Shown here one piece after another: positions 1,570-50,186 of a stretch of 64,000 bases of DNA. The translations under genes and the position numbers were made by a program. Under the pieces are notes generated by a model. The model did no database searches. It was not told the origin of the DNA and worked only from the letters and a program-made list of their open reading frames with translations. The stretch spans positions 2,240,001 through 2,304,000 of the forward strand of contig OZ243916.1 of assembly GCA_965213675.1 (NCBI GenBank), given 5' to 3'. The stretch comes from an uncultured Candidatus Binatia bacterium. Lineage in GTDB: Bacteria > Desulfobacterota > Binatia > UBA9968 > JAJDTQ01. The stretch's first letter is position 1. Each line of letters starts with the position of its first letter.

Positions 1570-3108
1570 ATGTTCAAACGAATTCTGGTGGCCAACCGCG
1601 GCGAGATCGCCGTCCGCATCATCCGCGCGTGCCGCGAACTGGATATCGAGAGCGTGGCGGTCTACTCCGAGGCGGACCGCGACGCGCTCCACGTCAAATA
1701 CGCCGACTACTCCTATCCCGTGGGTCCGGCTCCGTCGGCGGAGAGCTACCTGCGCATCGACCGCATCATCGACGTGGCCAGGAAGAGCCGCGCCGAGGCC
1801 ATCCATCCGGGTTACGGCTTCCTCGCCGAGAACCCCGCGTTCGCGCGCGCCTGCGGCGAAGCCGGCATCGTTTTTCTGGGGCCGGCCCCGGACGTGATCA
1901 AGCAGATGGGCGACAAGGTCCACGCCCGCGCCCTCATGAAGAAGGCCGGCCTGCCGGTGATCCCCGGCTCGGACGACATCCTGAGTTCCGAGGAAGAAGT
2001 GCTGGAGACCACCGAGGCCATCGGCTACCCGTGCGTGCTCAAGGCCGTGGCCGGCGGCGGCGGCAAGGGCCTGCGGCTGGTGGAGTCGGGCGACGAGGTG
2101 CGCTCCGCCTTCCGCGCGGTGCGCTCCGAGGCCGCGTCGTCCTTTGGCGACTCCCGGCTCTACGTCGAGAAGTACCTGGAGCGCTGCCGCCACATCGAGG
2201 TCCAGCTCCTGGCCGACATCTACGGCAAGGTGCTGCACCTCTTCACGCGGGAATGCTCCATCCAGCGGCGCCACCAGAAGATCATCGAAGAGTGCCCCGC
2301 GCCCACCATCGACCTGCGCATGCAGAAGGCCATGGGCAAGACCGCGGCCCAGGGCGCCAAGGCGCTCAAGTACACCGGGGTGGGCACCATGGAGTTCCTG
2401 GTGGACCGCCAGAAGAACTTCTACTTCCTGGAGATGAATACCCGCCTCCAGGTCGAGCACGCCATCACCGAGCGGGTCATGGGCATCGACCTGGTGAAGG
2501 CGCAGATCAACGTAGCCGCGGGCATGCCGCTCCTCTGGTCCCAGCGTCAGATCCAGGGGGCGGGCCACGCCATCGAGTGCCGCATCTACGCCGAGGATCC
2601 CGAGACCGACTTCATGCCCTGTCCGGGCAAGATCGAGGGGCTGCGCCTGCCCGAGGGCTTCGGCATACGCAACGACTGCGGGGTGTACGAAGGTGCCGAG
2701 ATTCCCATCCACTACGACCCCATGATCGCCAAGCTCATCGTCTGGGGCGAGGACCGCGCCGAAGCCATCCGGCGCCTCAAGCGCGCCTTGCGCGAGTACC
2801 AGGTGCGGGGCGTCAAGACCAACATCCCTTTCCACCAATGGATGCTGCGCCACCCCCAGTTCATCGAAGCGGACTTCCATACCGGGTTCGTGGACGAGCA
2901 GCGCGGCTTCATGTCGCGGGAGGAAGTCTATCCCAACCGCCACGTGGCACTGGCCTCGGCGGCCATCGTGGCGCTCCACCGGGAGCAGGAACGGGCGCTT
3001 CAGATGGTGGAGAAGGGGGCATCGGAACAGTCGGGCTGGCGCGTGGCGGGACGCCGGGAGGCGTTGCGGCTTCAGCCCGGGACGGCCGCTCCGGGACGGG
3101 GTTGGTAG
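1570..3108 (+). CDS. accC: Biotin carboxylase subunit
   Basis: True start MFKRILVANRGEIA at 1570. Motifs HPGYGFLAEN, GGGGKG, RECSIQRRHQK, FLEMNTRLQVEH, YDPMIAKL. Confidence 0.92.
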   Translation: MFKRILVANRGEIAVRIIRACRELDIESVAVYSEADRDALHVKYADYSYPVGPAPSAESYLRIDRIIDVARKSRAEAIHPGYGFLAENPAFARACGEAGIVFLGPAPDVIKQMGDKVHARALMKKAGLPVIPGSDDILSSEEEVLETTEAIGYPCVLKAVAGGGGKGLRLVESGDEVRSAFRAVRSEAASSFGDSRLYVEKYLERCRHIEVQLLADIYGKVLHLFTRECSIQRRHQKIIEECPAPTIDLRMQKAMGKTAAQGAKALKYTGVGTMEFLVDRQKNFYFLEMNTRLQVEHAITERVMGIDLVKAQINVAAGMPLLWSQRQIQGAGHAIECRIYAEDPETDFMPCPGKIEGLRLPEGFGIRNDCGVYEGAEIPIHYDPMIAKLIVWGEDRAEAIRRLKRALREYQVRGVKTNIPFHQWMLRHPQFIEADFHTGFVDEQRGFMSREEVYPNRHVALASAAIVALHREQERALQMVEKGASEQSGWRVAGRREALRLQPGTAAPGRGW

Positions 3109-3112
3109 ACCC

Positions 3113-3622
3113 ATGGCATTCATCGCAAAGCTCGGCGGCCAGACCTCGGCGGTACGCATCACCGAGACCGGGAAGTCGCTCTACAAGGTGGTGGTGGACG
3201 GGCATGAGTTCACGGTGGACGGAAGGCGCACCGGCCGCAACAACTACTCGCTGCTCATCGACAACCGTTCGTTCGAGGTGGACGTGGACGTGGACACCGC
3301 CGAGGACGCATACCGCGTGCTCCTGGACGGCCGCACCTACCATATCCGCATGTCCGACGAGCGCCAGGTACGCGTCGGCGGGCGCCAGTCCGGCGTGGAG
3401 GTGTCCGGCCGGCAGGAGATCCGCATCCCCATGCCGGGCAAGGTGGTGACCGTACTCGTGAACGAGGGCGACACCGTCGCCAAGGGACAGGGCCTGGTCA
3501 TCGTCGAAGCCATGAAGATGGAGAACGAGGTGCGCGCACCGGGTCCGGGCAAGGTCGCGGATCTCCGCGTCAAGGCCGGCGAGTCGGTGGAATCCGGGCA
3601 GGTGCTGGTGATCGTGGAGTGA
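3113..3622 (+). CDS. Biotin carboxyl carrier protein
   Basis: C-terminal biotinyl domain PMPGKV...EAMKMENE; in operon with the carboxylase subunits. Confidence 0.92.
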   Translation: MAFIAKLGGQTSAVRITETGKSLYKVVVDGHEFTVDGRRTGRNNYSLLIDNRSFEVDVDVDTAEDAYRVLLDGRTYHIRMSDERQVRVGGRQSGVEVSGRQEIRIPMPGKVVTVLVNEGDTVAKGQGLVIVEAMKMENEVRAPGPGKVADLRVKAGESVESGQVLVIVE

Positions 3623-5987: not shown

Positions 5988-6121
5988 AGCAAGCCGGAGC
6001 CGCCGGCGGGAGCGCCGCCGGGAATCCGGGGATTCCAATTTTTTGACAAGAAGGACCTCTTCCGTGTGACCGCTTGGGGTCGGCTCGACCGCAACAGTCT
6101 ACGGCACACCGGGAACACACC

Positions 6122-7371
6122 ATGGGAAATCCCAACGGACGTCGAGTCGTGATCACCGGCATGGGGATGGCCACGCCCCTGGGCATCGGCGTGGAACCCA
6201 ACTGGGACGCGATCCAGGCCGGGCGCTCCGGCATCGGCCCCATCACCCGCATCGAGGACATCGAGTCCTTCGGCAGCCGCATCGGCGGCGAGGTGGACGA
6301 TTTCAATCCGCTGGACTTCATCGAAGCCCGTGAAGTCAAGAAGATGGACCTGTTCATGCAGTACGCCATGGCCGCGGCGCAAATGGCGGTGGAGGACAGC
6401 GGGTTCGCGGTCAGCGAGGACGAGGCGTTCCGGGCCGGCTCCATCGTGGGCGTGGGCTTCTGCGGCATCGCCACCATCGAACACTATCATGGCGTGTACC
6501 TGAAACAGGGCCCGCGCAAGATCTCCCCCTTCTTTATCCCCAAGGTCATCTCCAACCTGGCGCCCGGCCATATCGCCATCCGCTACGGGCTCAAGGGCGT
6601 CAACTGGACCCCCACCTCGGCATGCGCGTCGGGCAACAACGCCGTGGGGGAGGCCTATCACCTGATCCGCGACGGCCGGCAGGACGCCATCATCGCCGGC
6701 GGGACGGAAGCGGCCACGACTCCTCTGGGGCTGGGCGGGTTCGCCGCCATGAAGGCCCTGTCCACGCGCAACGACGAGCCGGAGAGGGCCAGCCGGCCCT
6801 TCGACAAGGACCGGGACGGGTTCGTCATGTCGGAGGGCGCGGGCATGCTGGTTCTGGAGGAGCGCGAACGCGCGCTGCGGCGCGGCGCGCGCATCTACGC
6901 CGAGATGATCGGTTACGGCACCAACGGCGACGCCTACCACATCACATCCCCCGCTCCCGCGGGCGAAGGCGCGGCCCGCTGCATGGCGCTGACCCTGGAG
7001 GACGCCGGCGTCGAAGCGACCGGCGTGGACTACATCAACGCCCACGGCACGTCGACCCCGTACAACGACGCCAACGAGACCGCCGCCATCAAGACGGTGT
7101 TCGGCGATCACGCCGGCAGGCTGGCGGTGAGTTCCACCAAATCCATGACCGGACACCTGCTCGGCGCCGCCGGCGCGGTGGAGGCGATCTACAGCACGCT
7201 CGCGCTGCACCACGGCGTGCTGCCGCCCACCATCAACTACGAGACACCCGACCCCGACTGCGATCTCGATTACGTACCCAACGGGCCGCGGCAGGCGGAC
7301 ATTCGGATCGCCCTTTCCAATTCCTTCGGATTCGGCGGCACCAACGCGTGCATCCTGCTCAGGAAGGCGAC

Positions 7372-7375
<4 letters not shown>
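6122..7375 (+). CDS. fabF: Beta-ketoacyl-ACP synthase II
   Basis: Motifs RRVVITGMG, SACASG, YINAHGTST, KSMTGHLLGAAG, SNSFGFGGTN. Confidence 0.95.
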
Positions 7376-8367
<992 letters not shown>

Positions 8368-8400
8368 TGCCCGGGACGCGGGCTGGCAGACCTCCCTCAC

Positions 8401-9267
8401 GTGATACCGGCTGAAGGCTTCGCCCTCGCCTGCGGGTTCTTCACCGCCGTCAATCTGATCTTCCTCAAGAAGGGATTGGCCCACGGCAATCCCATCAGCG
8501 CCACCGTTCTCTCGCTTGCCATCAACGTGTTGAGCTTCTGGAGCTTCGTCCTGGCCGTGCTGCCGTGGGACGAGATCCTCCGCCCCGAACTTCTCATCTT
8601 CGTGCTGGTGGGCCTGATCCAGCCCGGCGGCACGCGGTTTCTCGCCTATCTGAGCGTGGAGAAGGTGGGTGTGGCCGTCACCGCGCCGATCCGCGCCACC
8701 ACCCCGCTATTCTCGTCGCTCCTGGCCATCGCCGTGCTGGGCGAGGAGCTCACGCCGGCCGTGGGCGCGGGAACCGCTCTCGTGGTGGGCGGCATCATCC
8801 TCCTGAGTCTGAGCCACGAGAAGACTGGCGCATGGATGAACGTCATGGTCGCCCTGCCCCTGTTGAGCGCCTTCGTGGCGGGCTCCACCCAGGTTATACG
8901 CAAGATCGGCCTGGCCGGCATCAGCCTCCCCATCCTCGGCGCCGCCACCACCACCGGCACCTCGCTGGTGGCCATCGCCGTGTCGCTGACCGTTTCGCGC
9001 AACTGGCCCATGGTGCGCTTCGACCGCCGCGCCCTGGGCTATTTCGTTCTGGCCGGCTGTTCCGTGACCTTGGGCGTGGCCAGCGTGTTCATGTCCCTGC
9101 ACCTTTCCGACGTCGTCATCGTCGCCCCGCTGGCGAGTCTGAGCCCGCTCTACAGCCTGGTGCTATCGGCGGTGTTTCTGCGCGACGTGGAGGTCATTAC
9201 GGCGCGGAAGGTGATGGCGGCGGGACTGATCGTGCTGGGGGTGGTGCTGATTACGGCGATTCGGTGA
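8401..9267 (+). CDS. DMT/EamA family transporter
   Basis: About 10 hydrophobic segments in two EamA-like halves (..LGEELT.., ..FLRDVEVIT..). Confidence 0.85.
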   Translation: MIPAEGFALACGFFTAVNLIFLKKGLAHGNPISATVLSLAINVLSFWSFVLAVLPWDEILRPELLIFVLVGLIQPGGTRFLAYLSVEKVGVAVTAPIRATTPLFSSLLAIAVLGEELTPAVGAGTALVVGGIILLSLSHEKTGAWMNVMVALPLLSAFVAGSTQVIRKIGLAGISLPILGAATTTGTSLVAIAVSLTVSRNWPMVRFDRRALGYFVLAGCSVTLGVASVFMSLHLSDVVIVAPLASLSPLYSLVLSAVFLRDVEVITARKVMAAGLIVLGVVLITAIR

Positions 9268-9431
9268 AGCGCGGCACCAACTCACATACCCCACACGTCG
9301 ATCTCGAAACCGCCGGTGGGCTCGCGGGGCGCGATGACGGGACGATACTTCAGGTTCATGGGTCATCGGAAGGGCCCGGGGTTGAAAGTCACCGCGGGCC
9401 GGGCCACATTCCCCTTCCAAAGGAGGCAGAC

Positions 9432-10064
9432 ATGAGACAGGTACTCAGTGAGCACGTCCCGGCCAACACGGGCTGGTCCGGCGACCTCAGGCAGGGGCAG
9501 ATCATCCGCATCATCGCCATGTCCACCGTGGATTTCCTGGTGCTGGACCAGCACAACCTGCGGGAGCGTTTCGACCAGGCGCGGACGAAGGTCTACAACG
9601 GGAAGATCTTTCTCAGCACCGGCGACAAGCTCATGTCGCGGGACAACCAGCACTTCATGACCATCGTGGCGGATACCTTCGCGGAGGGGACCCACGACCT
9701 GCAGAAGGGCATGTGCAGCGGACGCCGTTTCCAGTTGGCGAAACAGGAAGGGCGGCTGCGGGAATACTACCACCGGGACTACCGCGACGACGAGATCCCC
9801 GATCACGGCTGCTGGGAAAACCTCTCCGGGGCGCTGGCGCCCTACGACATCGCGCCGGAGGACGTGCCGAACCCGTTCAACCTCTTCCAGCACATGATCA
9901 TCGACGGCAAGACCGGAATCATGCAGCACACCACGGTCCGGCCGGCGGCGCCGACCCACGTGGACATGCGCGCGGAGCGCGACCTGCTGGCGGCGTTCAG
10001 TGCGTGCCCGGACATGCCGGTGGGCGGGAAACCGGTGGACGTGGAAATCTACGAGGAGGATTGA
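9432..10064 (+). CDS. DUF1989 / urea-carboxylase-associated family protein
   Basis: AGGAGG RBS, then MRQVLSEHVPANTGW. Motifs TIVADT..HDL..GMC, HGCWENL, PFNLF, SACP. Confidence 0.85.
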   Translation: MRQVLSEHVPANTGWSGDLRQGQIIRIIAMSTVDFLVLDQHNLRERFDQARTKVYNGKIFLSTGDKLMSRDNQHFMTIVADTFAEGTHDLQKGMCSGRRFQLAKQEGRLREYYHRDYRDDEIPDHGCWENLSGALAPYDIAPEDVPNPFNLFQHMIIDGKTGIMQHTTVRPAAPTHVDMRAERDLLAAFSACPDMPVGGKPVDVEIYEED

Positions 10065-10156
10065 CGCCGGCCTCGCCCCGCCCGGATTCCCGCTTGCGCG
10101 GGCATGACGGAAAAGGGGGCGGGGAGAGCGGGAATCAGGTCAGCGGACGACGGCGG

Positions 10157-10825
10157 CTACTCGAAACCCATGCGCCGGCCCCAGTTGGACGGGTCCTTGA
10201 GGAAATCGACGATCTGGTTGCGGTTTTCCTCGGAGAAAAACCCGGTGTCTTCGCCGGCGTTCAGAACATCGTCCCAATTGGACAGGGTGTGGAGGTCGAT
10301 GTCGTGGTCGGCGAGGTTCTTCTTGCCCTCGTGCAGGTCGAGGGCGTCGGAGCTGTACTCGAAGACGCACAGGCAATGAGTGATGCGCGCCTTCTGGGCG
10401 CGCACGCCGATGTTGAAACGGAGCTTGCTGAAGCCATCGGTGACGAGGTCTTCCACCAGCGTCACCCGCTGGCCCTCGTTCAGGACCCCCTCGATCTGGT
10501 TGGTGTGGCCGTAGCCCTTGGGGTTCTTGCGGATGTAGATCATGGGCTTGCGCAGGTAGTGGGAAACGAACGCGGCATAGGGGATGCCCGCGGTCTCGCC
10601 TCCGGCCACCACGTCCATGTTGCCGAGGCCGATGTCGCGCCGTGCGATCTGGGCCAACGCCTCGAGGATCTCGTCCCGCGCCTCCGGGAAGGACAGCAGC
10701 CGGCGGCAGTCGATGTACACCGGTGAGACCCGCCCCGACACGAACACGAACGGCCTGTCGCGGTACACCTGGATGGACTGTGTGCTCAGCAGAAGCTCGG
10801 CGATTCTCTTTCCGGTCTCGGACAT
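10157..10825 (-). CDS. pyrE: Orotate phosphoribosyltransferase
   Basis: Motifs FVFVSGRVSPVYIDCR, GGETAGIP, YIRKNPKGYG, LVEDLVTDG. Confidence 0.9.
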   Translation of the reverse strand: MSETGKRIAELLLSTQSIQVYRDRPFVFVSGRVSPVYIDCRRLLSFPEARDEILEALAQIARRDIGLGNMDVVAGGETAGIPYAAFVSHYLRKPMIYIRKNPKGYGHTNQIEGVLNEGQRVTLVEDLVTDGFSKLRFNIGVRAQKARITHCLCVFEYSSDALDLHEGKKNLADHDIDLHTLSNWDDVLNAGEDTGFFSEENRNQIVDFLKDPSNWGRRMGFE

Positions 10826-11166
10826 GGATGCGTTTCCTCTGGTCTATGCCGTTCGACGAAAAACGATGGATTCCAATGGCTCTCGATGGAACTCGATGAG
10901 ATGACCGCGGTCCCCGCGGCGGGCGAGTTGGTCGGGGTTTGTAACATGGCCCATGGGCCTATTGCCAGCCGTTGTTGCCGCTCATGCTTTCCTGATACCA
11001 TGCCTCCGGTAACGTCGAGCTTGCGCCTTTCGAATGCGCCCTTCGACCTCGCCCGGAGACGCCTCGCCACGCTCCGGACGAACGCCAACGAGCTGTTTCG
11101 TCGCGCTTGCCATGACTCCTGAGACAGGCAGCGCTTGCCCTGCTTTCCTCTCCGGACCCGTATCGG

Positions 11167-12432
11167 ATGGAAGTCCCCAAGATCAACAAGGACAGGCTGT
11201 TGCGCGACCTGAACGCGGTCTCGCGCATCGGCTTGGGCGAGGGCGGATCGGTCACGCGGCTGGTGTTCTCGGTGCACGAGATGCGCGCGCGCCAGTTGCT
11301 GGTCCACCGGATGCGCCAGGCCGGGCTGGGCGTGCGCGTGGATGCGCTGGGGAACGTCTTCGGCCGGCTGGCGGGGCAGCGGGAGGGACCGGCGGTGCTG
11401 GCCGGGTCGCATCTCGATTCCGTGGTACAGGGCGGGAGATACGACGGCCCGGTGGGGGTCATCGGCGCGCTTGAAGCGGTGCGCGCCATCAAGGAGAGTG
11501 GCGTGCCCGTGCCAGCGCCGCTGGAGAGCGTGTGCTTCGTGGGCGAGGAATCCAGCCGATTCGGGTTCTCCACCCTGGGCAGCACCCTGGTGGCGGGGGA
11601 CGTCACCATGGACGACTTCGCCCATGCGGTGGACGCGGGCGGCGCCCGGCTGGAAGACGTGCTTTCGGGCCTGGGCATCCACCGCGAGAACCTCGATTCG
11701 CTGAAGCGCGACCCCAAGACCGTCAAGGCGTACCTCGAACTGCACATCGAGCAGGGTCCCGTCCTGGAGTCCCGGAAGAAGAAGATCGGCGTGGTGACGG
11801 CTATTGCCGCGCCGAGCCGGTTCCGGGTGGTCTTTCGCGGCCAGGCCGACCACAGCGGCACCACGCCCATGGATATGCGCAAGGACGCGCTGGTGGCGGC
11901 GGCGCTTCTGATCACGTTCATCGACGAGGTGTGCCGGGAGCATTCCTCCACCGAGATGGGACGCGTGGTGGGAACCGTGGGCGCCATCAAGGTGGAGCCC
12001 GGCGTCATCAACGCCATCCCGGGGCGGGCGGAGATGCAGGTGGATGTGCGCAGCATCACCGCCGCCTCCAAGCGCAAGGTCGCCGGACGGGTCCGGACGC
12101 GGGCGCGGCGCATCGCCCGGGAGCGCGGCGTGGAGGTGGACCTCGTGACCATCCGGGACGAGAAGCCGGTGGCGTTGCACCGGCGGGTGATCGGGCTCAT
12201 CCGCGCGTTGTGCGAGGAACACCGCGTCCCTTTCGAGGTGATGCCGTCCGGGGCCGGCCACGACGCCATGCAGATGGCCAGGATCACTCCCACGGGCATG
12301 ATCTTCATCCCCAGCGTCAACGGCGTGAGCCACAACCCCACGGAATGGACCGACCCCGAGGACATCTGTCTCGGGACCCAGCTTCTGATGGAAGCGATGC
12401 TGAGAGCCGCCCATGCAGAAATCCGGAACTGA
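11167..12432 (+). CDS. Zn-dependent M20 amidohydrolase (N-carbamoyl-amino acid / beta-ureidopropionase / allantoate amidohydrolase family)
   Basis: Motifs GSHLDSV, GRYDG, EESSRFG, YLELHIEQG, HSGTTPM, SGAGHDA, SHNPTE. Confidence 0.9.
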   Translation: MEVPKINKDRLLRDLNAVSRIGLGEGGSVTRLVFSVHEMRARQLLVHRMRQAGLGVRVDALGNVFGRLAGQREGPAVLAGSHLDSVVQGGRYDGPVGVIGALEAVRAIKESGVPVPAPLESVCFVGEESSRFGFSTLGSTLVAGDVTMDDFAHAVDAGGARLEDVLSGLGIHRENLDSLKRDPKTVKAYLELHIEQGPVLESRKKKIGVVTAIAAPSRFRVVFRGQADHSGTTPMDMRKDALVAAALLITFIDEVCREHSSTEMGRVVGTVGAIKVEPGVINAIPGRAEMQVDVRSITAASKRKVAGRVRTRARRIARERGVEVDLVTIRDEKPVALHRRVIGLIRALCEEHRVPFEVMPSGAGHDAMQMARITPTGMIFIPSVNGVSHNPTEWTDPEDICLGTQLLMEAMLRAAHAEIRN

Positions 12433-46221: not shown

Positions 46222-46566
46222 TCAGAGGAGCGCCCGGAGGGCTGCCTCGTCGAAGCCGGCAACCTTGCGCTTGCCCTTGATGGTCACCGGGCGCCGCAAC
46301 AGGTTCTGGTCCTCCACCATCAAACGGATGGCCTCCTCCCGGCTTGGAGGGTTGGCCTTCATCTTCCGCTCCCGATAGAGCGCGGTCCGTGTGTTGAGAA
46401 AGTCCGTCACCGGCCCGGCACCGATGATGGCCTCCAACTCCTTCTCGGTCAACGGCTGCTTGCCGTACTCCCGCTCCTCCAACTCCGCCCCTTGTGATTG
46501 CAAGAAACTTCTTGCCTTGCGACAGGTGGTTCAGGTGTTCTTGTAATAGAATTTCAGCTTGGCCAT
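46222..46566 (-). CDS. ArsC/Spx-family thioredoxin-fold selenoprotein (UxxC), 114 aa
   Basis: ATG at 46566 gives MAKLKFYYKNT-TGA-TTCRKARSFL, continuing in frame into the ArsC-like ORF (..NLLRRPV..AGFDE). TGA at 46531-46533; SECIS-like hairpin at 46500-46515. Confidence 0.85.
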
Positions 46567-46687
46567 GGCCGTTTCCCTTTCTACCCGTCTCCCCGATTAC
46601 CTCGTATCCCGTGGGGAGGTCGTCCGTAAGGAAGTGGTTCCCTTTGGGTCTCCGTAGCAGCTTGGAAAGCGTACTCGAACCGGAGCT

Positions 46688-47197
46688 TCATGGTCCAATT
46701 TCCGCTTGGAGCCCGGGGGCAAGTTCGCCGGGGTTGATCCGCCCTTGTTGAACGGCCGCAACCAGAAGCCCCTTGACGCGTGCCCTCGTAAGGCGACGCC
46801 ACCGCTGGTCCTTGATCGCCGTCACGATGCGCTGAGCTACTTTACCGAGCCGGACGAGATCGAGCTTGCAGATATCGACATGCTGTTCGGATAAACCTGC
46901 GACCGGCGTTCGCCCTTCCGTAACCCTCAAGGTCTGGCCATCCGCCTCCAACTCCTCATCTACAAGCCACACGATATCCAGCTTATCGAGACGTTCTCCG
47001 GCAGCGGCGATGGCCAACGCGGCATCCCATATGTCCTTGTCCGAACCCGTGCGGCATCGCCAGAAGGACAGTGTGTCCCTTTGCGTTCGCAGGTCGCCGG
47101 TCACCGCGTCCGCCGCTATTTCTCCCGGTTCCAAACCTCGCTCGATATTCCGTTTCGCATCCCATTTCGCGAGAGCGATCTTCCGGACCAGGAACAT
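46688..47197 (-). CDS. Hypothetical protein, putative ADP-ribosyltransferase-fold toxin (CmdT-like)
   Basis: FLVRKI...KW, ADAVT.DLRT..TLSFW, G.TP....HVDI pattern recalled for CmdT-like toxins (unverified); starts 10 nt after upstream stop. Confidence 0.55.
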   Translation of the reverse strand: MFLVRKIALAKWDAKRNIERGLEPGEIAADAVTGDLRTQRDTLSFWRCRTGSDKDIWDAALAIAAAGERLDKLDIVWLVDEELEADGQTLRVTEGRTPVAGLSEQHVDICKLDLVRLGKVAQRIVTAIKDQRWRRLTRARVKGLLVAAVQQGRINPGELAPGLQAEIGP

Positions 47198-47206
47198 CGC
47201 CGCTGC

Positions 47207-47905
47207 CTACTCTACCAAGTCCTCGACGACATCCTCGATATAGGCGCGTAGCCAGGATACCTGCTCGACATGGCTAGACAGCACTGCTGGCATTTCCGGT
47301 CCCCCCCACGACTCCGCCGCCTGAACCGCGGCGTCTCTCATCTCCACATCGTCGGCTAAGAGCGCTGACTGCACGATTCCAACGCGCCACACGGAAGTCC
47401 CTGGCCGCCGTCTGCCCAAACACCGCAGAACCGACGCTGCCAAGACGGGACGCTCGACATCCACAGCCAACGACCCGAGCCATGCCAAGACACGCCCACC
47501 CTGTTCTGACTCTAATGCATCGCCGATGATCCGCTCCGCTGGATGATCGATTCCGTCTTCGAGTGGCTCGGCCTCAAACGCCATCGTCAGTCGGTCAACA
47601 AGGCGCGTCTGTTCGTGTATCTCTTCTTCAAGACACGCAAGATCAATGACAGCCGGGAACAGGCTCATCCCCAGCTTCGTGTGGAACAACTCGGAATCTG
47701 AGCGATCAACGACCAGTCGAAACCCAAACTCGGACAAGGCCCTTACTAGACGAGCTGGTTCCAACGATACGGCCATGGACTCTCTGCCGCCGCTTACCAC
47801 ATGCATCGACCCTTGTTTCCCTCCCGACGGATCCGCGTTCCGAACCAATTCAGGAAGAGACGGACGGCATGTGGACAACTCCGGCTCGTGGGATTCAACC
47901 AGCAT
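47207..47905 (-). CDS. Hypothetical protein with helical HEAT-like C-terminus (candidate antitoxin/partner)
   Basis: ATG overlaps the end of the upstream gene; acidic C-terminal DVEMRDAAVQAAESWGG..WLRAYIEDVVEDL; start uncertain. Confidence 0.65.
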   Translation of the reverse strand: MLVESHEPELSTCRPSLPELVRNADPSGGKQGSMHVVSGGRESMAVSLEPARLVRALSEFGFRLVVDRSDSELFHTKLGMSLFPAVIDLACLEEEIHEQTRLVDRLTMAFEAEPLEDGIDHPAERIIGDALESEQGGRVLAWLGSLAVDVERPVLAASVLRCLGRRRPGTSVWRVGIVQSALLADDVEMRDAAVQAAESWGGPEMPAVLSSHVEQVSWLRAYIEDVVEDLVE

Positions 47906-48680
47906 CAAACAGTTCCCTGGCTTTGTCAGTGACCACCGCCTCAAATGCCGATCCTGCCCGTTCATGCAGGTCATTGGCGATTTCCAACGTTCGCTCAGAT
48001 TCAATCTGCGCATCACCCCGCCAAATGACATCCAGATCGAGAAGGCATTTCACGGCGTCCGCCGGGGCTCCAATCAATCCAAGGGCCAACACAAGCCGCA
48101 CTCCATCGTCATACACGTACTCCACCCGGCTCAGGAAATTCGTGTAATCCTGTGGCAAGCCGCTCATCTCCAGATGCGCGCACTTGAGATACTCCTCGAC
48201 CCTGACTTGACTCCCTGGAATCGCGATCTGGTTAATGTAACGAACGCCGACCCGATTAATCCCGCTGGGTTCTGCCACCTTTCGGTACGCTTCCAACGCG
48301 GCTGTAATGCGAGGCGCAAACTCTTGCCATCCGCCTCCCTCCGTGTTCGACGGATCCTGGTAGGGGCGGAGCATATGAACGCTAAGGACGTCACGCCCGA
48401 CACCGACCAACCTCGTCCCATCTTTCGTCAAAAGTTGGACCTTCGCCAAACCTTCGTCATACTCCAAGTTGGCAGGCTTGCCTTCCTGGACTTGCAAACC
48501 CAACTGAACCATTTTCTGCTCTCTGGGTTTGCCGGAATACTCCTCGCCCAGCGCGGCCTGGAGCTTCCCGGGAATCGTGAGGTCCCAATCCGGTCCGGGC
48601 ACGAAGCGGAATTCACAGAGCGCCTCATTGACAGGCGGGTTCCGATAGCGTCGCCGTTGATTCACCGGTCCACTTCCCAA
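47895..48680 (-). CDS. TIGR04255-family protein
   Basis: YRNPPVNEALCEFRF N-terminus; PY..W.EF, RVGVRYINQI, LLDLDV, LH....AFE..VTD. Start may be GTG 48665. Confidence 0.8.
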   Translation of the reverse strand: MGSGPVNQRRRYRNPPVNEALCEFRFVPGPDWDLTIPGKLQAALGEEYSGKPREQKMVQLGLQVQEGKPANLEYDEGLAKVQLLTKDGTRLVGVGRDVLSVHMLRPYQDPSNTEGGGWQEFAPRITAALEAYRKVAEPSGINRVGVRYINQIAIPGSQVRVEEYLKCAHLEMSGLPQDYTNFLSRVEYVYDDGVRLVLALGLIGAPADAVKCLLDLDVIWRGDAQIESERTLEIANDLHERAGSAFEAVVTDKARELFDAG

Positions 48681-48809
48681 ATCGATTGCCGTGACTGAAG
48701 GATTCGGCCGTCCGCATGGCCGCGTCCGTCCCGAATAGCAGCCACCCCGTCACCGAGTGTCGGAAGGTCGCCCCTCGTTTGACACATGTGTCGAAGTGAC
48801 CCCGACCCA

Positions 48810-50186
48810 TCAGACGTATTTGCTTACGTCCACCCGCTTCATGGCCTCCAGCGGCACTTCGTTCTTGATGGGGAATTCGCCTTCCAGGGGGCGGGTGGCG
48901 TCCACCACGGCGACGCTGTCGCCGAGCCAGCCGCGGAAGTTCTGGACCTCGCGGATGACGTCGAGGTCCCGGTCCCAGTGGGTGCGGGTGCCCACCGCCC
49001 ACATCACCTCGCGCTCGTTGAAAACGTCCACGTCGTCATCCACCACCACGCAGAGCTTGAGGTTGGGCATGTCGGCGAATGCCTGCATGGCGGCCTTCTT
49101 GGGTTCGTTGGGGAACTTCTTGTCGATGGAGATGTAGCAGATCACGCGGCCGCAGCCGGAGTGGGGCAGGTGGATGGCCTTGATGCCCGGGATGTTGCGC
49201 TTGATGGAGTTGTAGACGCTGCCTTCCTTGGTGATGCCGCCCAGGTTCCAGTGGTCCTTCTGGCCCGCCCAGATATCCTGCATCACCGCGTTCCTGCGGT
49301 GGGTGACCGCGGTGACCTCGACAATCGGCACGTCCATGGTCACCTGGTAGTAACGCAGCACCTCGCCGAAGGGGTTCTGGGAGCGGCGCACGTTGGGCGG
49401 CACCTCGCCCTCGATGATCATCTCGGCGTCCGCGGGCACGAGGAAGTCTTCGCCCCAGGTCACCGACGGGGTCAACCGCAACGGCTCGCGCATGAACGCC
49501 GCGGCGCTCTGGTAGTCGTCGTTGCCGTAGGGGGTCATGCAACACGACGAGAAATAGAAGGCCGGATGGTGACCCATCACGATGATCACCGGCGCCCGCT
49601 GCTCCTTGGCCTCGTTCTCGCTGACGATGGCTTCCAGGTGATGGTGCTTGTGGGCCGAGAAGCTCATGGTGCGACCGTCGTAGTAGAGATTCTTGGTGAA
49701 AGTGATGTCGTAGAACGGCTCCGCCTCGCCTTTCATGACGCAGGCCATGGTCCAGTAGGGACCCACGTCGAGATCGTGGTGCATGGGGATGGGATACCGG
49801 GCCAGGTCCACGTCCGACCCGCGCACCACCACCTCACGGCACGGCGCGGCGTCAGGCGCGATGACCTCGGTCTCGCCCTTCTCCTTCTCCAACCGCGACA
49901 CCTCCAGGCTCAACTCCATGTTGGACTTGAGGTCACCCATGCCCATGCCGTCGGCGCAGAACTGCCGGCTCACCCAAGGGTTGTAGAAGAGCGGAAACGG
50001 AGACGGCTTCCCCTCCAGCGTGGTCACGTTCTCGAACAGCACCATCTTGTCCAGACCGCGGTCGTCCAGGTGCTTCAGGAACGCGATGGTCTCGCACTTG
50101 TTGGGATCGATGGGGTCCTTCACCCGGATCAGGTCGCCCGGGCGGCGCTCTTCCTCGGTGGCGATGAATTCCTGTAGGTCTCTCAT
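48810..50186 (-). CDS. UbiD-family (prFMN-dependent) decarboxylase
   Basis: Motifs DL...PIP.H..D.GPY, G.HPA, VPADAEMIIEG, PFGE, VVVDDDVDVFN..EV.WA..TR, DATRP. Confidence 0.88.
   Translation of the reverse strand: MRDLQEFIATEEERRPGDLIRVKDPIDPNKCETIAFLKHLDDRGLDKMVLFENVTTLEGKPSPFPLFYNPWVSRQFCADGMGMGDLKSNMELSLEVSRLEKEKGETEVIAPDAAPCREVVVRGSDVDLARYPIPMHHDLDVGPYWTMACVMKGEAEPFYDITFTKNLYYDGRTMSFSAHKHHHLEAIVSENEAKEQRAPVIIVMGHHPAFYFSSCCMTPYGNDDYQSAAAFMREPLRLTPSVTWGEDFLVPADAEMIIEGEVPPNVRRSQNPFGEVLRYYQVTMDVPIVEVTAVTHRRNAVMQDIWAGQKDHWNLGGITKEGSVYNSIKRNIPGIKAIHLPHSGCGRVICYISIDKKFPNEPKKAAMQAFADMPNLKLCVVVDDDVDVFNEREVMWAVGTRTHWDRDLDVIREVQNFRGWLGDSVAVVDATRPLEGEFPIKNEVPLEAMKRVDVSKYV

Follow-up and report, generated by a model that had tools for sequence, protein, structure and literature searches.

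The window analysed here is a 64,000-nucleotide stretch of the genome of an uncultured Candidatus Binatia bacterium (GenBank assembly GCA_965213675.1, contig OZ243916.1, positions 2,240,001 to 2,304,000 of the forward strand). At positions 46688-48680 it carries a cassette of three coupled open reading frames (ORFs) on the minus strand: the stop of the first gene (G1) overlaps the start of the second (G2) by 11 bp, and the third gene (G3) follows after a gap of 9 nt. With moderate confidence, we interpret this cassette as a mobile tripartite toxin–antitoxin (TA)-type module that works in the manner of the toxin–antitoxin–chaperone (TAC) systems and is built from unrelated parts; its role is probably defence. 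G1 is a member of the TIGR04255 family, G2 a putative adaptor and antitoxin, and G3 a putative toxin with a predicted ADP-ribosyltransferase (ART) fold. A first-pass annotation, made from the DNA letters alone, had described three coupled minus-strand genes with this overlap and gap, and their coordinates were confirmed.

The pairing of G2 with G3 is constant. We collected 80 loci with G3 relatives, one genome per species, from metagenome-assembled genomes (MAGs) labelled Binatia, Thermodesulfobacteriota, Latescibacterota, Dehalococcoidia, Spirochaetia, Rhodothermales, Gammaproteobacteria and others. In 79 of these loci the gene immediately before G3 is a G2 relative, and the sole exception is cut by a contig end, in agreement with the earlier proposal that the middle protein is the partner of G3. 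G2-like genes range from 143 to ~440 aa; their C-terminal ~135 residues are always conserved and the N-terminal part is variable, and a hidden Markov model (HMM) of the C-terminal part matches the same proportion of loci (79/80). The HEAT_2 signal of G2 is weak (E 0.08 for the protein in the window, 2.1e-4 in the longer homologue of locus L044), and two of the 120 G2 homologues listed carry a precomputed PF13646 assignment. G2 has no Pfam family over the cut-off and no NCBIfam or PADLOC match above threshold. We presume that the HEAT-like C-terminal half of G2 neutralises G3. At the level of gene neighbourhoods, the constant G2–G3 pairing, the mobility and the plasmid carriage are as expected of a toxin–antidote pair and suggest one.

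Relatives of G3 (25-34% identity) also occur in four Acinetobacter temperate phages, near the phage end, and in six plasmid records, which include a 7.5-kb MOBQ Acinetobacter plasmid and 5-kb Enterobacter plasmids. Each is accompanied by a coupled upstream gene, and in two cases a third gene lies further upstream. In the Acinetobacter plasmid trio, the profile of the G2 C-terminal part finds a weak match in the middle gene (E 4e-8). By NCBIfam or hhalign (probabilities <=1.7%), the genes that open the Acinetobacter phage and plasmid trios show no relation to TIGR04255.

G1 matches NCBIfam TIGR04255 over positions 1-251 of the 252-position profile (E 8.3e-36, 124.1 bits against a cut-off of 30), as the first-pass annotation had named it. 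This is its only match across Pfam, NCBIfam and PADLOC, with no Pfam family at E<=1, and a search of the ESM Atlas returned TIGR04255 or hypothetical clusters only. Of the 80 loci, 45 have G1 as the gene directly before G2. The same trio, for which a neighbourhood survey had been proposed, is thus conserved in its G2–G3 part, and G1 is adjacent in these 45 loci only; that G1 is optional for G2–G3, and that TIGR04255 is shared by many other pairs, had been missed. A profile of the first 95 residues of G2 matches 34 of the 45 loci with an adjacent G1 and 1 of the 34 uncut loci without it (that one at E 0.013). The association of the G2 N-terminal module with G1 therefore appears strong, with the limit that related genomes are not independent.

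Two kinds of locus without an adjacent G1 deserve a separate description. In L021, counted as lacking G1, a divergent TIGR04255 gene (E 1.3e-17; ~2472-3224; G442:C1:737944-738696) is separated from the downstream G3 by ~4.8 kb, a distance that includes a large type III-like methyltransferase gene; because of this divergent G1 gene, the BLAST counts of G1 absence may slightly understate its presence. In five Dehalococcoidia/Chloroflexota loci without TIGR04255 (L023, L029, L036, L042 and L044; ~6200-7200), a conserved 224-280-aa protein (‘c13’, 226-aa) precedes a longer form of G2 (265-346 aa). No Pfam or NCBIfam model matches this protein, and hhalign shows no relation to TIGR04255 (probability <=1.7%); it may be an alternative third component.

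We then co-folded G1, G2 and G3, with G1 as the scored partner and with three controls. The scores were 0.66, 0.61 and 0.63 (reported 0.63), against 0.00 for the best control; the predicted local distance difference test score (pLDDT) of the partner was 80-82, and at least 80% of contacts were shared between the runs. This mark is reached by 58 of 80 solved complexes and by 2 of 110 mismatched pairs. Since the control that kept G1 but replaced G2 abolished the score, the predicted contact of G1 depends on G2, not on G3. In the predicted interface, G2 residues 35-66 and 81-92 lie on strands of the conserved sheet face of G1. Within this docking segment S43 is invariant and G40 and S47 are at least 90% conserved, and Ser43 touches G1 residues 21, 23, 100, 146, 147, 217 and 219. 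Among 44 diverse TIGR04255 proteins, P16, E19, Y107, F121, R143, Y148, I149, D215, D217 and F246 are at least 80% conserved, and R25, R147 and N150 are 60-80% conserved.

The AlphaFold2 model of G1 (pLDDT 83) consists of two copies of a beta-alpha-beta4-alpha unit, whose strands make up a single long curved sheet; the helices lie on one side. Foldseek matched it to AdoMetDC/prozyme (E 9.5e-6), TBP and RepD, all with low template-modelling scores. The first-pass annotation had placed TIGR04255 in the position of SecB. A third-component role like that of the TAC chaperone fits, because the predicted partner of G1 is the middle protein rather than G3; the likeness to SecB itself gained no support, as G1 matches no Pfam model and resembles guanidino kinases, TBP and AdoMetDC in fold. 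SecB is not among the listed fold matches of G1, an absence that is not in itself evidence on the fold.

Beyond the G2–G3 pair, TIGR04255 is a shared and reused head gene of many toxin–antitoxin pairs. In a survey of the window's phylum, the family was found in 43 of 401 genomes; 41 loci were examined and 35 analysed, without L118, L121, L141, L148, L150 and L151, where a narrower G1-subfamily HMM missed TIGR04255. One coupled same-strand downstream gene is present in 29 of the 35 loci, and two are present in 25. In the phylum of a gammaproteobacterial MAG, TIGR04255 was found in 31 of 401 genomes and 30 loci were examined. Here 28 of 30 have one coupled same-strand downstream gene and 23 with two were kept, without 5 loci whose partners were tiny or single ORFs. 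Neither survey found the family in the control genomes (0/14).

The genes downstream are diverse. By Pfam, the third genes encode PIN (L128, and nearby in L116 and L132), HEPN (L126), HicA (L138), MazF/PemK (L200) and DUF7689 (L114, L120 and L125) proteins. Some middle genes carry an Xre helix-turn-helix (HTH) by Pfam; in others, an extra N-terminal stretch precedes a C-terminal part that resembles HicB or VapB, as read from the sequence by eye and not by a model, and most partners belong to no family. BLAST clustering of 48 loci and the window gave 19 distinct (middle, third) family pairs, with some families recombined with one another, and one locus (L197) has the same G2/G3 families as the cassette of the window. 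Many middle proteins (for example those of L114, L123, L125, L127, L129 and L137) have a short acidic-Ser/Thr motif 20-45 residues from the N-terminus, whose variants GIESS, GEESS, ATES, FSDTA, ASETA and ASDTA recall, by eye and without statistics, the GRES43MAVS of G2, for which a position in the cleft of G1 is predicted.

The same genome holds a second TIGR04255 cassette outside the window (G000:C1:2855560-2856291; L084:6007-8364). Its first gene encodes a TIGR04255 protein of 268 aa; the next, with a 4-bp overlap, encodes 222 aa with a weak Xre-like HTH, and the last encodes 292 aa that belong to no family. By hhalign, neither partner is related to G2 or G3. Like the cassette of the window, this one directly follows a UbiD-family gene of the same orientation (L084:4501-5937), a shared position that may be due to an old duplication, to a preferred insertion site or to chance.

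G3 is, as judged from its model, a member of a large unnamed family of small ART-fold proteins with an unusual set of conserved residues. It has no match among Pfam, NCBIfam and PADLOC models and, as a single sequence or as a profile, no relative by sequence in the PDB, where such searches with all three proteins gave nothing beyond one chance row (E 0.96). A word-seeded search yielded 237 homologues, and the G3 profile against 1.84 billion representatives yielded 2334 clusters (50% identity) at E<=1e-3, of which 326 at E<=1e-30; nearly all of the clusters listed measure 160-180 aa. Fused or longer forms were not found among 8000 scored candidates, which by the tool's own rating is weak evidence. 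The ESM Atlas gave unnamed clusters only, the nearest named family being DUF6098 at 0.91, likely by chance.

The AlphaFold2 model of G3 has a pLDDT of 92.9 and a predicted template-modelling score of 0.86. In a search independent of Foldseek (VIA) against 48,161 representative chains, 31 of the 50 rows listed are ART, PARP-like, NAD+ glycohydrolase or Tpt1/KptA proteins by title. About 12 further neighbours are proteins that we take to be of ART fold, namely RES, MbcT and NatT toxins, Tse2, AvrPphF ORF2, CC0527, TreX/TreTu, Tne2, protein 6b and IcmQ. The top Z-score in this search was 5.4; in a second look, Tpt1 (8tg3) reached Z 6.0 with 91 residues aligned, a root-mean-square deviation (rmsd) of 3.4 and 13% identity, followed by KptA (5.8), CC0527 (5.1), a RES toxin (5.0), DarT (4.6) and cholera toxin A1 (4.0). 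Because the Z-scores are low and Foldseek was empty, the fold call rests on the coherence of the match list; at this level we accept the ART-type fold that the first-pass annotation had suspected, and no clade is claimed.

In 57 aligned G3 sequences, R5, K11, W12, A29, D30, A31, T33, D35, L36, S44, W46, A62, T97, H106, D113, L117, G118 and L159 are invariant, and V107 and D108 are at least 90% conserved. The Arg in FLVRKI, the Ser strand (LSFW) and the HxD strand that had been picked out earlier are thus among the most conserved positions of the family. In the model, strand 1 contains R5, the strand 42-48 contains S44, and the strand 106-110 begins with H106-V-D108. The layout would correspond to that of the R-S-E transferases, with His-x-Asp in place of Glu/Gln-x-Glu (ExE/QxE). 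The alignment to cholera toxin A1, which pairs residues 1-143 of the G3 model with chain residues 3-137, would allow R5 to match the first-strand Arg of the toxin.

Comparison with related genomes supports that the cassette is horizontally acquired and fast-evolving. The GC content at third codon positions (GC3) is 0.634, 0.635 and 0.659 for G1, G2 and G3, while the flanking genes, identified by Pfam, have values of 0.913 (ubiD), 0.862 (ArsC family), 0.867 (tRNA_bind), 0.906 (thiC) and 0.889 (apt, phosphoribosyltransferase). The A/T-richer codon endings reported earlier are therefore real (0.63-0.66 against 0.86-0.91). We located the ubiD orthologue in 24 same-genus genomes and inspected the next 1.5 kb. 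The ArsC-family gene follows ubiD directly in 15 of them (empty site), the cassette is present at the junction in four (L155, L167, L170 and L172), and the remaining five (L183-L187) have other content, so that this is a variable spot. In four of these five, the junction holds other cargo (a PAS histidine kinase, large unnamed proteins) or a deletion that places ThiC beside ubiD. The PAS histidine kinase comes with a response regulator; the proteins without a Pfam match measure 846 aa and 645 aa, and in L183 the 846-aa protein is followed by the tRNA_bind gene, with no ArsC match.

In blastn comparisons with five relatives whose site is empty, the homology breaks off at 46566-46581 and starts again at 48810-48813, and the insert therefore measures ~2.23 kb. 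Among the cassette-bearing congeners, identity is 92-96% for ubiD, 79-81% for G1 and 58-66% for G2. Since the site is empty in 15 of 24 congeners and GC3 is ~0.64 against ~0.89 in the flanks, the earlier view of an acquired cassette holds. As also stated there, neither an integrase nor a transposase was found in or around the cassette in the window; the insert ends have only short imperfect repeats of a chance type and no convincing terminal repeats.

The neighbourhoods of G3 relatives may point to defence. At least one recurrent PADLOC-positive neighbour is present in 33 of the 80 G3 loci, a count that is suggestive only, because the recurrent neighbours alone were scanned and it comes without a background rate. 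These neighbours include a type III methyltransferase with a restriction enzyme, HKD+Snf2, PDC-S01, BrxC/BrxF, TRIP13 and SspABC, and further a PbeC/DndD-like ATPase, type IIG and type I enzymes, PDC-M41 and PsyrA. In seven of the 80 loci (L006, L009, L026, L027, L047, L064 and L067; around 6000-11500), the cassette, as G1-G2-G3 or G2-G3, lies between the type III Mod and Res genes, and in five of them the type III operon comes after an HKD+Snf2 helicase and a DUF4391 gene. Small abortive-infection genes nest similarly inside type I operons. In L001 and L002 (190-4768), which are among the closest cassette-bearing relatives, BrxC (E 0) and BrxF (3.6e-59) are encoded a few kb upstream. The cassette of the window has no BREX neighbours.

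We propose a mechanistic model for the module. G3 would be the effector, a small ART-fold enzyme with Arg, Ser and His-x-Asp that would use NAD+ either to modify a cellular target or to degrade it. Because its nearest structural neighbours are Tpt1/KptA, DarT and RES toxins, this target would most likely be nucleic acid or NAD+ itself. G2 would serve as both antidote and adaptor, with its HEAT-like C-terminal half holding G3 inactive. G1 would receive the N-terminal segment of G2 (residues 35-92, with the invariant Ser43) on its conserved, charged and concave sheet face, and would thereby control the stability or the conformation of G2. Once this segment is displaced or modified, for example by a phage product, G3 would be freed and the infected cell would stop growing. 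G1 itself may hold G2 passively, serve as a sensor or act enzymatically on the Ser motif; the last of these stays conceivable in view of its guanidino-kinase-like fold and its conserved charged cluster.

Besides the limits of the neighbour count given above, several observations weigh against this model. G1 is absent from 35 of the 80 G2–G3 loci and is thus not needed for the core pair. The calibration of the co-folding mark holds only roughly here, with our own alignments and three chains lying outside it. G1 alone was scored as the partner in the three-chain prediction, and the G2–G3 interface stands outside that score. The interface covers 49 of the 261 residues of G1 and holds 7 of the 25 conserved TIGR04255 positions, which is a mild enrichment only. 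For G3, Foldseek at E<=0.001 found nothing in the PDB or BFVD, and the structural Z-scores are low, at most 6.0. To our knowledge, His-x-Asp is not a described ART catalytic motif, and G3 could have a different chemistry or be inactive. Furthermore, the flanks in the window are housekeeping genes, and PADLOC-DB 2.0.0, in which the first-pass annotation had suggested looking for an already described system, gave 0 families for G1, G2 and G3 at E<=1.

It is tempting to extend the model further, and we do so only tentatively, since we think the extension doubtful. TIGR04255 might be a universal and exchangeable trigger of guanidino-kinase fold that grips, or marks as an enzyme, a short Ser-bearing N-terminal tag on unrelated antitoxins, so that at least 19 pairs, with PIN, HEPN, HicA, MazF, DUF7689, the ART of the window and many unnamed proteins among them, would share one infection-sensing switch. 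This would amount to a second independent invention of the TAC principle, with G3 as a new Arg/Ser/His-x-Asp catalytic class of ARTs.

The fold of G1 allows two other explanations. In the VIA search, its best structural neighbours are the phosphagen (arginine/creatine) kinases and McsB, matched over residues 9-257 and thus over nearly the whole length (Z 7.5-8.2, 175-190 of 261 residues aligned, rmsd ~4). G1 might then be a divergent enzyme of guanidino-kinase fold (McsB/arginine-kinase-like), nucleotide-dependent, that covalently modifies the Ser motif of G2 or a small molecule and so sets the stability or activity of G2; the module would resemble TA systems with an enzymatic third or antitoxin component. 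The conserved polar cluster of the family, with E19, R143, D215 and D217 in its more and R25 and R147 in its less conserved class, is consistent with such an activity, as is the contact of Ser43 with G1 residues 146, 147, 217 and 219 in the co-fold. However, a Z of ~8 is, by the tool's own note, within the range reached by unrelated models, for which reason we give G1 as a fold type and not as a family. Sequence identity to the kinase neighbours is 5-12%, there is no Pfam kinase match, G1 lacks the N-terminal helical domain of the kinases, and no nucleotide-binding motif was identified. Since TBP and RepD (Z 6.7) and AdoMetDC (6.6) score nearly as well, the kinase likeness may be one of topology only, and we consider an enzymatic G1 unlikely. 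The resemblance to the DNA-binding saddles of TBP and RepD would suit a different role, in which G1 controls the transcription of an ordinary addiction module by binding operator DNA with a TBP-like saddle, the element being self-stabilising and without an anti-phage role; omega in omega-epsilon-zeta and PaaR in PaaR-PaaA-ParE are analogues. G2 has no DNA-binding domain recognisable by Pfam, and G3 homologues sit on plasmids of 5-7.5 kb, where addiction modules are common. Yet the middle protein of other TIGR04255 cassettes already has an Xre HTH (Pfam) or a HicB- or VapB-like part (by eye), and in the co-fold the saddle is filled by the G2 peptide, with controls at 0.00. The 33 loci beside defence genes and the seven inside type III restriction-modification operons also argue against a plain addiction module, and we regard this explanation as more improbable still.

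The remaining alternative concerns G3, which could be a benign enzyme that handles NAD or ADP-ribose or repairs RNA, akin to the NAD lobe of Tpt1/KptA, with the trio as a small metabolic or repair operon. The top structural matches of G3 are indeed tRNA 2'-phosphotransferases (Z 5.4-6.0). But G3 aligns to the C-terminal lobe of Tpt1 alone (chain residues 92-184) and has no RNA-binding lobe. Sporadic distribution, foreign composition, a polymorphic site and carriage by phages and plasmids fit such an operon poorly, and the TIGR04255 partner elsewhere heads cassettes that end in PIN, HEPN, HicA and MazF toxins. We give this explanation very little credence. The tripartite TA-type module, with G3 as its toxin, remains the reading that we favour.

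Among the closest known systems are the TAC systems, including CmdTAC, which consists of a toxin, an antitoxin and a SecB-like chaperone; the toxin CmdT is an ADP-ribosyltransferase with an H-Y-[EDQ] triad and catalytic Y41 (PMC11618068). The likeness lies in three coupled genes, in a third protein predicted to grip an extension of the antitoxin, in the ADP-ribosyltransferase toxin of CmdTAC (PMC11618068) beside an ART-fold G3 and, with TAC systems in general, in one conserved third component that is combined with many toxin families. There are also differences. The third component here is TIGR04255, with a guanidino-kinase/TBP-like fold, and not SecB; the gripped extension is N-terminal (G2 35-92), whereas in TAC systems it is a C-terminal chaperone-addiction tail; and the gene order is the reverse of cmdT-cmdA-cmdC, as had been noted earlier. 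No part of the cassette is related in sequence to any part of CmdTAC. The resemblance of G3 to CmdT that the first-pass annotation had suggested was not borne out as kinship, because CmdT has the H-Y-[EDQ] triad (PMC11618068), whereas G3 has Arg/Ser/HxD with an invariant Arg in its first strand.

Like Xre-RES/MbcTA, ParST and DarTG, the cassette sets a small ART-fold toxin beside a dedicated antidote gene, and such toxins are among the structural neighbours of G3 (8gug, Z 5.0; 6fkg, 4.1; 6d0h, 4.1; DarT, 4.1-4.6). It differs from these pairs in its HEAT-like helical antidote, in the presence of a third gene and in its conserved residue set. Specifically, G3 has no Pfam RES match and G2 no HTH or DUF2384 match (E<=1), in contrast to Xre-RES/MbcTA; Pfam detects neither DarT (DUF4433) in G3 nor a macrodomain in G2, and DarT is a structural neighbour only. 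Tpt1/KptA provides the best structural match to G3, but G3 covers the NAD-binding lobe only, shares no sequence match and sits in a mobile cassette, whereas Tpt1/KptA is a housekeeping gene. The reuse of TIGR04255 also recalls Panacea (PanA, DUF4065), which is reported to be a hyperpromiscuous antitoxin domain that occurs with many unrelated toxin families in a combinatorial network (PMC8832971). In both, one conserved module is joined to many interchangeable toxin partners. Panacea, however, is itself the antitoxin of two-gene systems, whereas TIGR04255 has a gene of its own, the first in the cassette, with that of a different middle protein downstream; TIGR04255 is also unrelated to Panacea in sequence.

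The features of the cassette are collected in Table 1. For G1, GTG at 48665 is the likelier start, because GGAAG lies a few bases upstream and the resulting 256 aa are a common homologue length; the TTG start is probably 15 nt too far upstream. For G2 we keep the start as called, because full-length 232-aa homologues back it. The cassette's own promoter is presumed to lie inside the leader between ubiD and G1. A consensus scan of this leader found no sigma-70-like site, and a scan for promoter- or terminator-like sites found none fitting the operon.

Table 1 Positions of the cassette, its genes and their predicted parts in the window
Feature	Position	Strand	Basis or remark
G1, TIGR04255 family protein	47895..48680	-	Longest ORF, 261 aa from TTG 48680
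G2, two-part adaptor and presumed antitoxin	47207..47905	-	232 aa; 544 homologues, many of 232 aa with full coverage
G3, ART-fold protein, presumed NAD+-dependent toxin	46688..47197	-	169 aa
G2 residues 35-92, predicted G1-docking segment with G40/S43/S47 motif (GRESMAVS)	47630..47803	-	Co-fold interface, conservation, N-terminal HMM
G2 residues 96-232, HEAT-like helical domain, constant companion of G3	47210..47620	-	C-terminal HMM, 79/80 loci
H106-V107-D108 codons, start of the fifth strand of G3	46874..46882	-	H106 invariant; V107 and D108 at least 90% conserved
Inserted segment, ~2.23 kb, from the ubiD stop codon to the upstream region of the ArsC-family gene	46582..48809	.	blastn against empty sites
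Leader of 129 nt between ubiD and G1, within the insert	48681..48809	-	blastn insert boundaries

Full-text literature searches returned no paper on TIGR04255, CHP04255/IPR026349 or DUF7689, and nothing fitting was found in the literature on tripartite toxin–antitoxin systems; most subscription journals lie outside this coverage, and a description elsewhere is possible.

Together, our results suggest a TA/TAC-like module in which both the hub component and the family of ART-fold effectors are new. TIGR04255 is a named family without a function, and its position at the head of cassettes, with the predicted binding of G2, gives it a testable role. It points to a second family of third components in TA systems, beside the SecB-like chaperones. 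Members of the G3 family are found on phages, on plasmids and inside restriction-modification operons. Should these proteins prove toxic and NAD-dependent, they would extend the repertoire of ADP-ribosylating defence effectors.

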